A program made the position numbers and the translations under genes. Source: an uncultured Gammaproteobacteria bacterium (GTDB lineage Bacteria > Patescibacteriota > Patescibacteriia > SBBC01 > CAIJZX01). Taken from it: 53,188 bases of DNA. The stretch covers positions 1 to 53,188 of the forward strand of contig CAZFGG010000006.1 in the NCBI GenBank assembly GCA_964518425.1. The letters are read 5' to 3'. Below are positions 4,940 through 53,188 of the stretch, one piece after another. Below the pieces are notes generated by a model. The model saw nothing but the letters and a program-made list of their open reading frames with translations, did not search any database and had not been told where the DNA came from. Each line of letters starts with the position of its first letter. Within the stretch, counting starts at the first letter, position 1.

Positions 4940-5264
4940 CGGAGGAGGTGACCCCGTAAACCGCTTTGCGGTGCGGGGCAAGGATTCGAACCCACCAGGT
5001 CCTTTCGGGTCTGCAGCTTTTCTCAGCCCGAATCAAAAATCTCCACTTGGCGGAGGCGGAAGGATTCGAACCTTCGATACCCTTACGGATATACTGGTTT
5101 TCGAAACCAGCGCGTTCGACCACTCTGCCACGCCTCCATCAGGCACAGACTTTGAACAAATCATTGTCAGAGAACATTTTTTGGTACGGGGAGCCGTGCT
5201 TTCATCCGGGTCGCTCGTGGCGACCCATCTCGCTTTCTAGCTCGACCCACTCAGCCACTCCTCC
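4940..5264 (-). pseudogene. tRNA-Ser-like gene interrupted by three insertions (functional status unknown)
   Basis: Acceptor GGAGGAG (5264-5258)/CTCCTCC-G (4947-4940); D arm GCTGAGTGG..GAAAGC; anticodon stem CGGCT (5196-5192)/AGCTG (5018-5014); long variable arm; T arm GTGGG-TTCGAAT-CC[insert]CAC. Confidence 0.7.
5048..5137 (-). tRNA. tRNA-Ser (anticodon CGA)
   Basis: 90-nt cloverleaf: GGAGGCG/CGCCTCC, anticodon arm CTGGT-TTCGAAA-ACCAG, long variable arm, GGTTCGAATCC, GCCA end. Confidence 0.97.
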
Positions 5265-48415: not shown

Positions 48416-50938
48416 CTAGACCTCCAGCAGGCGCCGCTTCGCTTCGGTGAGCTTTTGTCGCTCGGTTTCAACAACGGCAGCCGGAGCATGATCAACAAAT
48501 TGTTGGTTGCTCAGTTTGAGCTCGACTGATGCGATGTATCGATCAAGATCCAAACGTTCGTTTGCGCGCCAGGATTCAAAACGTTGAACAAATTCAGTCG
48601 GCACCTGAAAACGAACATCACCCAAGACAATATCCTGATAGCCACTGGCGACCGTCAGTCGGTTGATCGGTTCTATTGGTAAGCCGGACAACGACTTGAG
48701 AAGACCGAGGTCGAGCCCTGGCGCGGGAACACACCGAATGGGCGCGGAAGTGGGAAGGTGGCTATGGAGCTTAAAATTCCGAAGGGCGACAACGGTCGTT
48801 TGTAGGGCAGAAAAAGACCTGATCATCGGTGAGGGACGGACCGGACGGGACGTTGGCCACGGCTGAATCATTAACAGTTTCTCGGGGTGGACGTGGTCCC
48901 ACAGCTCCTCCGTAATAAACGGCATGAACGGATGAAGGAGGATGAGAATGGTTTCGAAAACGTCATACAACAGGGCCGGATTTGGCTGCGCCTTGCTGAC
49001 CTCAACGTACCAATCCGCAAAATCGTGCCAGACGAAATCGTAGAGCGCCTGACCAGCGGCTGAAAAATCAAGCCCCTCAATGCTGAGCGTCACGTCGCGA
49101 ATAAGTCGATGACGCTGAGCGCCAATCCATCGTTCAGCGGCAGTGGTGGGCGCCGCCGCCCTGAGCGGCCGAGGCTGACTGTAAATAAACCGCCCGACGT
49201 TCCATAGTTTGTTGGCAAAATTGCGGTAGCCCTCAATTTTCTTTTCATACAAACGGAAATCCTGCCCGGCGGCGTTGCCGACAACCAAGCTCATCCGGAC
49301 GGCATCCATCCCATATTTTTCGGCGATCGGCAAGGGATCAATACCGGTGCCCTTCGATTTCGACATCTTTTTTCCTTGTTCGTCAAGGACCAGGCCGTGC
49401 AGGTAGACCCTTCGGAACGGCACCGTATTCATGAAATACAGCGAGAACATGATCATTCGGGCGACCCAGAAGAAGAGAATGTCCCAACCAGTTTCCATAA
49501 TATCGGTTGGGTGGAAGCGGAGGAGGTCCTTGGTCTTCTTAGGCCAACCAAGGGTAGAAAAAGTCCACAGACCAGAAGAAAACCAGGTATCCAGCGTATC
49601 TTCATCTTGAACCCATGTTGGTCCTGGTCGCTTGATGGCCACTTTTGGATCTTCACGACGGACGTCGGTTTTTTTATACCATACCGGCAGCCGGTGTCCC
49701 CACCAGATTTGCCGGGAAATATTCCAATCTCGAATATTCTCCATCCAGTGGAAGTACACTTTGGCGTACCGTTCCGGCACAATAGTAATTTTTCCTTGAC
49801 GCACGGCAGCCATGGCCTTCGCCGCCAAAGGCTTCATGCTCATAAACCACTGTCGGGACACCAATGGCTCGATGGGAGTCTTCGTGCGCTGGCAGTAAGC
49901 GATAGCATGAACATAGTCCTCTTCTTTGACGAGAGCCTGGCTACTTCGTAGCTGTTCGATGATCTTGTCCCGGGCCTGAACAACCGGTAAACCAGAGAAC
50001 TCCGGCCCGGCCGCCGCCGTCATCTTCCCATCAAAACCAATAATCTGTATTTGGGGTAGTCCGTGTGTCTGGCCGAGATCGAAATCTAAAGGATCGTGCG
50101 CTGGCGTCACCTTGACCGCGCCCGTTCCAAAACTTTGGTCTATGCGGCCGTCGGCAATAATAGGAATTTGACGGTTGATCAGCGGCAGGCGAACCATTTT
50201 CCCAACCAGGTTGGCATAGCGCTCATCTTTTGGGTGAACAGCCACGGCTGTATCGCCGAGCATTGTTTCTGGACGAGTAGTTGCGACCGTGATCGAACCG
50301 GATCCATCGGCCAACGGGTAGCGCAGGTGCCAGAGCTTACCCGGGCTTTGTTGATGGTCAACTTCAAGATCGGAAACGGCCGTTTGACAGTCGGAACACC
50401 AATTAATAATTCGTTCACCGCGGTAGATCAGTCCATCATGGTAAAGCTTCACGAAGGCGGTTTGGACGGCATCGGTTAAGCCGGGATCCAAGGTAAACCG
50501 CTCGCGCGACCAATCAGCCGAGGCGCCCATGGCCTTAATTTGTTCAACAATCCTTCGCCCATATTTCTCTTTCCACTTCCAAACTTCTTTCACAAACCTT
50601 TCTCGGCCAAGTTTTTGCCGGTCAATCCCTCGACGACGGAGCTCGCGCTCGACGACCACCTGCGTAGAGATAGCGGCATGGTCCGTACCGGGTAGCCACA
50701 AGGCGGCCCGGCCAGCCAGGCGGTGGTAGCGAATCAGAATATCTTGAATGGTCATGCCCAGCGCATGACCAAAGTGTAGCTCGCCGGTAATGTTCGGCGG
50801 GGGCATAGAAAGAACAAACGGCAGTCGACGCCGGGCACCGGGCAGCCGATCAGGATTAAAAAAACCTGAACGCTCCCAGCGTTGGTAAATTTTCTTTTCA
50901 ACTTTCTGTGGATCGTAGACTCGCGGAAGCTCAGACAT
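48416..50938 (-). CDS. valS: Valine--tRNA ligase
   Basis: PPPNITGELHFGH, GTDHA, ATTRPET, ISRQIWWGH, DTWFSS, KMSKS, C-terminal coiled coil. Confidence 0.98.
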   Translation of the reverse strand: MSELPRVYDPQKVEKKIYQRWERSGFFNPDRLPGARRRLPFVLSMPPPNITGELHFGHALGMTIQDILIRYHRLAGRAALWLPGTDHAAISTQVVVERELRRRGIDRQKLGRERFVKEVWKWKEKYGRRIVEQIKAMGASADWSRERFTLDPGLTDAVQTAFVKLYHDGLIYRGERIINWCSDCQTAVSDLEVDHQQSPGKLWHLRYPLADGSGSITVATTRPETMLGDTAVAVHPKDERYANLVGKMVRLPLINRQIPIIADGRIDQSFGTGAVKVTPAHDPLDFDLGQTHGLPQIQIIGFDGKMTAAAGPEFSGLPVVQARDKIIEQLRSSQALVKEEDYVHAIAYCQRTKTPIEPLVSRQWFMSMKPLAAKAMAAVRQGKITIVPERYAKVYFHWMENIRDWNISRQIWWGHRLPVWYKKTDVRREDPKVAIKRPGPTWVQDEDTLDTWFSSGLWTFSTLGWPKKTKDLLRFHPTDIMETGWDILFFWVARMIMFSLYFMNTVPFRRVYLHGLVLDEQGKKMSKSKGTGIDPLPIAEKYGMDAVRMSLVVGNAAGQDFRLYEKKIEGYRNFANKLWNVGRFIYSQPRPLRAAAPTTAAERWIGAQRHRLIRDVTLSIEGLDFSAAGQALYDFVWHDFADWYVEVSKAQPNPALLYDVFETILILLHPFMPFITEELWDHVHPEKLLMIQPWPTSRPVRPSPMIRSFSALQTTVVALRNFKLHSHLPTSAPIRCVPAPGLDLGLLKSLSGLPIEPINRLTVASGYQDIVLGDVRFQVPTEFVQRFESWRANERLDLDRYIASVELKLSNQQFVDHAPAAVVETERQKLTEAKRRLLEV

Positions 50939-51121
50939 GAAGAGCGATAAACATTAATTCAGTATGTTTATCAGGACCCAGCGGCTATAACCGCCTCACG
51001 AAGGGTGGTACCACCTGATTTTCCCGAAGCTCGTTCGAGACGCTTATTTCGCGAGGTCTACTAATCCCTTCACATGGGACGTTCTTCTCTAGCTCTCCTG
51101 GTGACAAGCCAGGGTCGTCGC
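50939..51121 (-). promoter_or_regulatory. T-box riboswitch (ultrashort Stem I, Val GUC specifier) upstream of valS
   Basis: Stem I GCGACGA-C-CCTGG-CTTGTCA-CCAGG-AGAGC; Stem II with AGAAC/AGTAGA S-turn; antiterminator-like TCAGG-TGGTACC-ACCC...GGGT-CCTGA. Confidence 0.88.
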
Positions 51122-51127
51122 AGGAGA

Positions 51128-51156
51128 AACGTATCCTAAAAAACGCCTACAGTCAA
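51128..51156 (-). promoter_or_regulatory. valS leader promoter
   Basis: TTGACT (51156-51151)-N17-TACGTT (51133-51128), 6 nt before the first base of Stem I. Confidence 0.7.
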
Positions 51157-51253
51157 GCCTTAATCAAGGCCCCTCGTTCGTTCTCGGCAGCCTTGTGGCT
51201 TGGCAAAATCTCGGTGCACAACCCCCTGCTTCTGAACGAGAGAGGCACGAGGA

Positions 51254-52279
51254 TTACACCAACTCCCAATTCGGATCACCTTTAATTTTTTGCCACGATG
51301 AAAAATCTTTTTTTTGGGCCCGGATTGCTCCAGCCATGGCAATCATGACGCCATTATCCATACACAGATTGAGCGCCGGCTGAATGTATCGGACGCCAGG
51401 AAGTACCTGCTCAACCATTTTCGTTAAACGATGTCGCAGTAGTTGGTTCGCGGCAACACCACCCCCGAGCACAATAGTTTTCGCACCAGTTTTTTCAACG
51501 GCCCACAGCGTTTTCTTGATGAGCGGATCAATAGCGGCGGCCTGAAAACTAGCACAGAAATCATTGACCAACTGCGGCGAACGCTTAATATGTTTACGCG
51601 CCTCATACAGGACTGATGTTTTGAGCCCGGAGTAACTGAAATTCAAGTTGCCCGATTTCATGAATGCTCGCGGAAAGGCAAATCGTGTAGCATCACCATG
51701 AATTGCCCGACGAGAAATTTCCGGTCCACCCGGATAGGGCAAGCCGAGAATCTTGGCCACTTTATCAAAAGCCTCTCCCACCGCGTCATCCACGGTTCGG
51801 CCCAACAGCTTATACTGTCCAAGTCCTCGAACAAGAATCAGCTCGGTGTGTCCACCGGAAACGATGAGCGCCACGGCCGGGAAAGCGATTTTCGTGGCGT
51901 CAGGCGAAGCCCAACTGCTGACGATATGTCCTTCGATGTGGTTTACTCGGACCAGCGGCTTCTTCAGAATGTATGACAATGATCGCGCTGTTTCCACACC
52001 CACAAGCAGCGCCGTATTCAATCCCGGCCCAGCCGTTACCGCGATTGCGTCAACATCTTTCCAATCCTTCCGTGACTTTTTCAGCGCAGCTTTCAACGTC
52101 GGAACGATCGTGACCGCGTGCTCCCGCGCGGCAACTTCCGGTACGACGCCGCCATATTTGCGGTGAATCAACACTTGCGAGGCGGCAACCTGTGCCTCGA
52201 TGGTAAGCTTCTTTTGATGATACGACACAATACCGATCGCCGTGTCGTCGCAAGAGGTTTCGATACCTAAAATACGCAT
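51254..52279 (-). CDS. tsaD: tRNA N6-threonylcarbamoyltransferase TsaD
   Basis: GIETSCDDT, GGVVPEVAAR.H, NHIEGH, SGGHT, DDAVGEAFDK, GGVAAN, DNGVMIA. Confidence 0.97.
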   Translation of the reverse strand: MRILGIETSCDDTAIGIVSYHQKKLTIEAQVAASQVLIHRKYGGVVPEVAAREHAVTIVPTLKAALKKSRKDWKDVDAIAVTAGPGLNTALLVGVETARSLSYILKKPLVRVNHIEGHIVSSWASPDATKIAFPAVALIVSGGHTELILVRGLGQYKLLGRTVDDAVGEAFDKVAKILGLPYPGGPEISRRAIHGDATRFAFPRAFMKSGNLNFSYSGLKTSVLYEARKHIKRSPQLVNDFCASFQAAAIDPLIKKTLWAVEKTGAKTIVLGGGVAANQLLRHRLTKMVEQVLPGVRYIQPALNLCMDNGVMIAMAGAIRAQKKDFSSWQKIKGDPNWELV

Positions 52280-53113: not shown

Positions 53114-53188
53114 TGGTAGCCCCACGGGGAATCGAACCCCGATTACCGGCTTGAAAAGCCGATGTCCTAACCGTTAGACGATGAGGCC
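53114..53188 (-). tRNA. tRNA-Glu (anticodon TTC)
   Basis: 75-nt cloverleaf GGCCTCA...TCGGC-TTTTCAA-GCCGG...GGTTCGATTCC...TGGGGCT-ACCA. Confidence 0.96.

Follow-up and report, generated by a model that had tools for sequence, protein, structure and literature searches.

A leader before valS in a candidate phyla radiation genome is very probably a valine-specific T-box with an ultrashort Stem I

The window analysed here is a stretch of 53,188 nucleotides from the genome of an uncultured bacterium. On its minus strand lies valS, with a T-box leader (51121-50971) directly 5' of it and tsaD as the neighbour across the leader. The sequence-only reading had described a series of leader elements, from a promoter to the T-box bulge, and each of these was found where it had been placed on the minus strand. 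The features of the locus are as follows.

tsaD, 51254-52279 (minus): neighbour across the T-box leader; NCBIfam TIGR03723, 396.7 bits.
Promoter-like site, 51128-51156 (minus): -35 TTGACT at 51156-51151, 17-nt spacer, -10 TACGTT at 51133-51128, read from the sequence.
Ultrashort Stem I, 51092-51121 (minus): K-turn-like base (GC / GAC bulge / GA ... GA / GC), 5-bp helix CCUGG/CCAGG and 7-nt loop CUUGUCA.
Stem I, 5' side (minus): GC 51121-51120, GACGAC, CCUGG 51113-51109, loop CUUGUCA 51108-51102.
Stem I, 3' side (minus): CCAGG 51101-51097, AGA, GC 51093-51092.
Specifier, 51102-51105 (minus): GUC 51105-51103 followed by the purine A51102, in the apical loop of Stem I.
Stem II, 51053-51089 (minus): lower helix GAG/CUC; AAGAAC opposite UAGUAGAC, an S-turn-like internal loop; upper helix GUCCC/GGGAU.
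Linker from Stem II to Stem III, 51041-51052 (minus): purine-rich GCGAAAUAAGCG, 12 nt, at the position of the Stem IIA/B pseudoknot in other T-boxes.
Stem III, 51022-51040 (minus): UCUCGAA/UUCGGGA with loop CGAGC, from the RF00230 alignment.
Discriminator (antiterminator/antisequestrator), 50971-51018 (minus): helix A1, UCAGG 51018-51014 with CCUGA 50975-50971.
Discriminator bulge, 51013-51007 (minus): UGGUACC, 7 nt, between helices A1 and A2.
Discriminator helix A2 (minus): ACCC 51006-51003 with GGGU 50979-50976; its loop carries a 23-nt insertion that is itself a hairpin.
AU-rich hairpin, 50945-50973 (minus): UGAUAAACAU / AUGUUUAUCG with a 9-nt loop; candidate off-state element, present in the MFE and centroid folds.
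valS, 48416-50938 (minus): valine--tRNA ligase of 840 aa, predicted regulated gene; NCBIfam NF004349, 1043.5 bits (cut-off 704), and TIGR00422, 952 bits.

The earlier proposal that valS is the regulated gene agrees with its position directly downstream and with its NF004349 score, and the N-terminus of the encoded ValRS aligns with the M[PS]ELPK..Y starts of relatives. The discriminator, folded alone, reached -16.3 kcal/mol. We also noted several side features of the locus. The T-box core GGUGGUACCACC (51004-51015, minus) is a perfect palindrome, and in the tRNA-free MFE structure it folds on itself (GGUG-GUAC-CACC), by which the UGGU would be masked. A uORF of 7 codons (50931-50954, minus) has its AUG at the start of the 3' strand of the AU-rich hairpin, and its UGA overlaps codons 2-3 of valS out of frame; it is absent from relatives and is probably due to chance. 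Elsewhere in the window, a 5S rRNA truncated by the window edge occupies the start (1-105, plus), tRNA-Ser(CGA) lies at 5048-5137, and tRNA-Glu(UUC) lies at the window end (53114-53188, minus).

We assessed the membership of the leader in the T-box family with covariance models. At the gathering score, Rfam reported no T-box in the window, only the 5S rRNA and two tRNAs. The RF00230 search that the sequence-only reading had proposed was run with permissive thresholds and gave a full-length alignment below the cut-off: model positions 1-219 were aligned end to end on 50969-51127 at 20.7 bits against a gathering cut-off of 93 (E 0.019 in 601 bases searched). The alignment placed the K-turn and the base of Stem I and reduced 76 Stem I model positions to 9 nt. 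This leader was the sole T-box candidate in the 982-kb genome. The T-box core was common to four family members, whose leaders likewise precede valS, and RNAalifold on the four leaders found Stem I, both Stem II helices, Stem III and the A1/bulge/A2 arrangement unaided, with a compensatory change in 14 of 30 pairs.

At E<=0.01, a covariance model built from these four leaders (R1) had a match in 18 of the order's 21 genomes; by family, these were 8/11 in f1 (without the host genome, G000), 2/2 in f2 and 7/7 in f3. A second model (R2) was built from 8 relatives with the window left out. Searched against both strands of the whole 53-kb window, it returned a single match at E<=1, at 50969-51124 on the minus strand (83.3 bits, E 1.8e-23). 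When 21 R1 hits were aligned, an alignment that is fitted to the model and thus biased towards structure, 93.7% of cells paired and both-sided changes occurred in 26 of 30 pairs; none of 500 shuffles was as good, and slid controls paired at most 57%. Compensatory changes across the 21 rows were found in all 7 pairs of Stem I, in 3/3 and 4/4 pairs of the Stem II helices, in the 5 modelled pairs of Stem III, in 3 of 5 pairs of A1 and in all 4 pairs of A2. The covariation that had been proposed as a check among the valS leaders of relatives was therefore observed.

The conserved details of the aptamer were also retained. A GUAGA-type motif was present in Stem II of 17 of the 18 order leaders; in the window, AGUAGA faces a GAA-containing strand, which suggests an S-turn fold in Stem II. 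All aptamer positions conserved in relatives, namely the K-turn, GUC-A and AGUAGA, were intact in the window, and a 23-nt core was identical between the window and two relatives (G009 and G006). The T-box identity claimed from the sequence is upheld by the end-to-end RF00230 alignment, the R2 match and the covariation, and we conclude with high confidence that the valS leader is a Val-specific T-box.

Stem I of this leader is ultrashort and carries GUC in its apical loop, as had been claimed: 9 nt stand in place of 76 model positions, and the promoter adjoins the K-turn. The motif TTGAC(N)-16/17-TAnnnT stands just 5' of the K-turn in the window, and by eye most of the relatives with inspected flanks have it at the same place. 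A scan for consensus promoters did not flag the window's site because its -10 element shares only 3 of 6 bases with TATAAT. Given the position of the promoter, the transcript would start a few bases before the K-turn. A search for sequencing runs listed 4 DNA entries, all from a single study, and none of RNA. A long Stem I whose distal platform of interdigitated T-loops would contact the tRNA elbow was absent, the promoter abutting the K-turn, and the spacer at 51157-51256 (100 nt) folded no better than shuffles (z -0.66).

The GUC (Val) specifier matches valS and, in line with the initial reading, was retained by every one of the 17 valS leaders of the order whose Stem I loop could be assessed. 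GUC followed by a purine was scored by script in 16 of these 17; in L015 the script took the wrong hairpin, and GUC-A-C was read by eye in the loop ACUAGUCAC. The eighteenth order leader (L023) is cut by a contig end and was left out of the count. In other families of the class, 9 leaders showed a codon for Val in the loop of Stem I (6 GUC+purine, 2 GUC+C and 1 GUA+G); 8 of them precede valS, and the first ORF after the ninth (L035) had no family match. GUC is also the commonest Val codon in the genome (44%).

The host genome encodes a tRNA-Val(GAC) with the anticodon loop UUGACAU, A73 and an encoded CCA. This gene spans overlapping contig ends (C23 from about 2341 to the end, C13 from 1 to about 73), so the two contigs are adjacent in the genome, and aragorn missed it because the gene is split over the two ends. 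Aragorn did report tRNA-Val(CAC) and tRNA-Val(UAC), each with A73 and an encoded CCA; a run with introns and a low threshold yielded hundreds of false tRNAs and was discarded. The suggested pairing of UGGU with the ACCA end of tRNA-Val is thus consistent with the sequences of the GAC, UAC and CAC isoacceptors, which are all complementary to the bulge. Just after tRNA-Val(UAC), its anticodon arm recurs unchanged over 28 nt (C13:5122-5149), within a tRNA-like fragment (C13:5103-5170) whose T-arm region is different.

Short-Stem-I T-boxes with other specifiers were found in the class. In the thrS leaders the loop has ACC and the bulge is UGGA; the host genome's Thr tRNAs have U-CCA ends. The ileS leaders carry AUC, and one leader of a non-discriminating aspS carries GAC. 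This aspS leader (L026, G007:C2:52157-52327) has a short stem, the loop GAC and the bulge UGGU; tRNA-Asp of the host genome has G73, for which a U-G wobble with UGGU is expected, the leader itself belonging to genome G007. An NCBIfam search of downstream genes confirmed 7 of 10 proteins, left 2 without a family match and identified 1 as a GNAT acetyltransferase. Three T-box-core matches (L035, L037 and L044) lie before such non-aaRS ORFs (2 without an NCBIfam match, 1 the GNAT acetyltransferase), and their regulated genes may be farther downstream. The valine version is no isolated re-specification, since the short design also stands before ileS, thrS and aspS.

These results also bear on whether a T-box is present at all. 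The resemblance could have arisen by chance in the spacer, or a canonical T-box with a long Stem I could lie farther upstream, and the RF00230 score, far below its cut-off, would fit such a reading. However, the R2 match was obtained with a model that does not contain the window, the helices covary, and the specifier agrees with the gene for valS, thrS, ileS and aspS alike. A longer Stem I would have to fit between the tsaD stop (51254) and the K-turn, a distance of only 132 nt that is occupied by the conserved promoter. We regard this explanation as extremely improbable.

We then examined how far the element extends among relatives. With stricter filters, a threshold of E<=0.001 and the host genome counted in both samples, R1 found the element in 21 of the 151 genomes sampled from the class and in 26 of the 151 from the phylum. 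G008, a genome of the same genus that is 99% complete and whose ValRS N-terminus is 79% identical, has no T-box in its short valS leader (L048). In G003, only a remnant of the 3' hairpin precedes valS (L049). The loss in one genome and the remnant in the other indicate that the element is dispensable in the window's family. In G011 the contig starts inside valS, and its leader was not assessable. A search with the ValRS N-terminus gave, among the matches listed, mostly distant valS (Paenibacillus and others, 54-63% identity). R1 was run on 23 of the 80 listed valS loci, comprising CPR, actinobacterial and a few others, and produced 1 match, in a Candidatus Kerfeldbacteria MAG whose leader is identical to one f3 leader of the order. 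This identity and the genome size of about 1 Mb support the description of the host as CPR-like.

A literature search for T-boxes in Patescibacteria, the candidate phyla radiation, Saccharibacteria and Parcubacteria found no paper. By the description of its build, the class II search of TBDB was restricted to Actinobacteria and truncated class I hits, and for this reason it is unlikely that such leaders are included in that database.

The Bacillus valS and tyrS leaders are canonical examples of class I T-boxes. Like canonical class I T-boxes (RF00230), the window's leader has a K-turn, a specifier that matches the gene, Stem II, Stem III and a 7-nt T-box bulge with predicted complementarity between UGGN and the tRNA discriminator. 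Unlike them, it lacks the AG bulge and the distal loop platform along with the rest of about 76 Stem I model positions, has neither the IIA/B pseudoknot nor a U-tract terminator, and scores far under the Rfam cut-off. T-boxes of the glyQS type keep the long Stem I platform and are without Stem II and IIA/B. The window's leader resembles them in being a naturally reduced T-box without the IIA/B pseudoknot, but the reduction is the opposite one, with Stem II retained and the platform lost. Both described accessory anchors are therefore missing from it.

Ultrashort-Stem-I T-boxes of the translational type are described for ileS in Actinobacteria (Mycobacterium tuberculosis and Nocardia farcinica; 'class II' in TBDB) in the relevant parts of PMC7583486 and PMC10651847. 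The window's leader shares with them a Stem I made of a K-turn and a short helix, an apical loop that holds the specifier and, after it, a purine, the absence of the elbow-binding distal platform, Stem II (S-turn-like by sequence in the window), Stem III, the UGGN discriminator and an A2-loop insertion. It differs in having GUC before valS rather than AUC before ileS, in belonging to a CPR lineage rather than to Actinobacteria, in being without the Stem IIA/B pseudoknot, and in an alternative hairpin that contains no Shine-Dalgarno sequence and overlaps the antisequestrator by 3 nt. The claim that it has the same architecture as the actinobacterial leaders consequently fails, with no pseudoknot and no Shine-Dalgarno sequence to sequester.

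Short-Stem-I T-boxes from other CPR families (L029-L047), which precede valS, ileS, thrS and aspS, agree with the window's leader in Stem I, specifier loop, Stem II and discriminator. An element of the IIA/B type (CGGG-N-CCCGU-N-A) between Stem II and Stem III was found in none of the 18 order leaders; the regex matched 2 of the 18, both misplaced (one inside Stem II, one 189 nt upstream). Of 11 leaders taken from the other class families, 9 gave a match, one of these matches being misplaced in a leader that does have the motif, and one of the 2 misses has a GA variant by eye. Unlike the window's order, most of L029-L047 thus keep a IIA/B-like element together with a hairpin/U-run terminator. 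From these sequences, the window's order appears to have lost both the IIA/B-like element and the plain terminator.

The region before the start codon was analysed for a possible readout. No Shine-Dalgarno sequence precedes the valS AUG. Genome-wide, no enrichment was detected: motifs at -18..-4 occurred in 9.8% of 143 unambiguous ATG starts, with 9.8% and 16% at two control positions, and the 16S 3' tail keeps CCUCC (C7:37855-37914) despite this absence. The AU-rich hairpin (50973-50945) has 10 bp and -7.7 kcal/mol, its 3' end lies 6 nt before the AUG, and it overlaps the antiterminator by only 3 nt (UGA of the A1 3' strand). The tail after it reads CUCUUC; in CUCUUCAUG there are 3 U in the first 8 bases, and a terminator scan of the leader found no terminator-like site. 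When the antiterminator was imposed on the fold, the hairpin kept 6 bp, and the mean unpaired probability at -15..-1 rose only from 0.20 to 0.39.

The corresponding region was compared between families. The f1/f3 relatives have a conserved hairpin, GGRUCCUGA-loop-UCAGYGAYCC (about -11 kcal/mol), which uses the whole 3' half of the antiterminator and is followed by a pyrimidine-rich stretch without a U run and then by the AUG. By eye, 8 of 11 f1/f3 relatives have 6-11 nt between the end of the hairpin on the antiterminator 3' strand and the AUG, and L020 shows two substitutions that compensate each other, U to C in the shared strand and A to G in the strand facing it. In family f2, the partner of the antiterminator 3' strand is GGAG or a run of G a few bases 5' of the AUG, and this sequestrator that pairs with the Shine-Dalgarno sequence is present in L014 and L015. 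Other families of the class have a hairpin that includes the A1 3' strand and, after it, a run of 5-7 U, which often adjoins the AUG; plain terminators of this kind follow the short-stem T-boxes L029, L030, L031, L034, L035, L037, L032, L036 and L042. The window's hairpin differs from the conserved hairpin of its relatives, the conserved 3' strand being absent, and its role is therefore without comparative support. Metagenome contigs scanned for the T-box core and the A1 3' strand with two patterns gave 0 matches, and hence no closer relatives of the hairpin.

In the switch that we propose, the valS transcript would begin just before the K-turn-based 5-bp Stem I, whose apical loop would offer GUC-A to the anticodon of tRNA-Val(GAC), and Stem II with its S-turn-like loop would support the codon-anticodon contact. 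The UGGU of the 7-nt bulge would pair with the uncharged A73-CCA end, and A1 and A2 would be stabilised. When uncharged tRNA is absent, the hairpin would take 3 nt from A1 and close 6 nt upstream of the AUG; when it is bound, A1 would prevail, the hairpin would be weakened and the start region would open. In this scheme, the binding of tRNA, the sense in which valS is regulated and the blocking of the start site are inferred. A2-loop insertions are presented as typical of translational T-boxes in the account of PMC7583486, and the insertion in the window's leader was counted for a translational readout. For the ileS T-box, the IIA/B pseudoknot is described as essential for pre-docking and high-affinity tRNA binding in PMC10651847; this counts against the proposal, in which tRNA would bind without it. 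The small change in predicted accessibility speaks against occlusion, as it would make for a weak switch logic. Taken as a whole, the reading of a minimal Val-specific T-box that gates valS by occluding a start site without a Shine-Dalgarno sequence is, in our judgement, evenly balanced.

Two other accounts of the hairpin keep the same T-box. Transcription attenuation would make 50973-50945 an atypical intrinsic terminator that uncharged tRNA-Val prevents from forming. Since other families of the class join the short-stem T-box to a hairpin with 5-7 U, termination may be the ancestral readout; the window's hairpin, however, is AU-rich and of modest stability with a 9-nt loop, has few U in its tail, shares only 3 nt with the antiterminator and was not picked up by the terminator scan, and we consider attenuation quite unlikely. 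Alternatively, the tRNA-binding part may be intact and the expression platform eroded, the UCAGYGAYCC hairpin having been replaced, with weak or no regulation on the way to a loss such as that in G008. The missing conserved 3' strand, the small change in start-site accessibility, and the absent and remnant T-boxes of G008 and G003 fit this course. Against it, the K-turn, GUC-A, AGUAGA and the 23-nt core shared with G009 and G006 are all intact, the ValRS has diverged to 72-79% identity with those of family members, which argues for continued selection, and the new hairpin keeps the family layout, overlapping A1 and ending a few nucleotides before the AUG. Erosion thus seems rather unlikely to us.

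Returning to occlusion of the start site, a broader proposal can be made for the order. Its T-box may have shed the two accessory anchors for tRNA seen in solved structures, namely the distal platform of Stem I and the IIA/B pseudoknot, and may gate translation without a Shine-Dalgarno sequence by a bare hairpin a few bases upstream of the start codon. This would be a third kind of platform, neither terminator nor Shine-Dalgarno sequestrator, with an origin in terminator-type forms that sister families still have. We put this forward tentatively, with the balance somewhat against it.

In what the T-box papers say of Stem I, the short form belongs to translational ileS leaders of Actinobacteria, and transcriptional T-boxes are stated in the pertinent section of PMC7583486 to need a long Stem I generally. 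In the sister families the short Stem I is joined to plain terminators, and in the window's order it occurs without a pseudoknot or a Shine-Dalgarno sequence. Standard annotation at the Rfam cut-off overlooks these leaders entirely. If tRNA binding holds true, the leader would be among the smallest natural T-box aptamers, at about 150 nt, and would allow a direct test of which T-box modules are required. These findings suggest that a conserved family of short-Stem-I T-boxes in ultrasmall bacteria serves at least the synthetase genes for Val, Ile, Thr and Asp.
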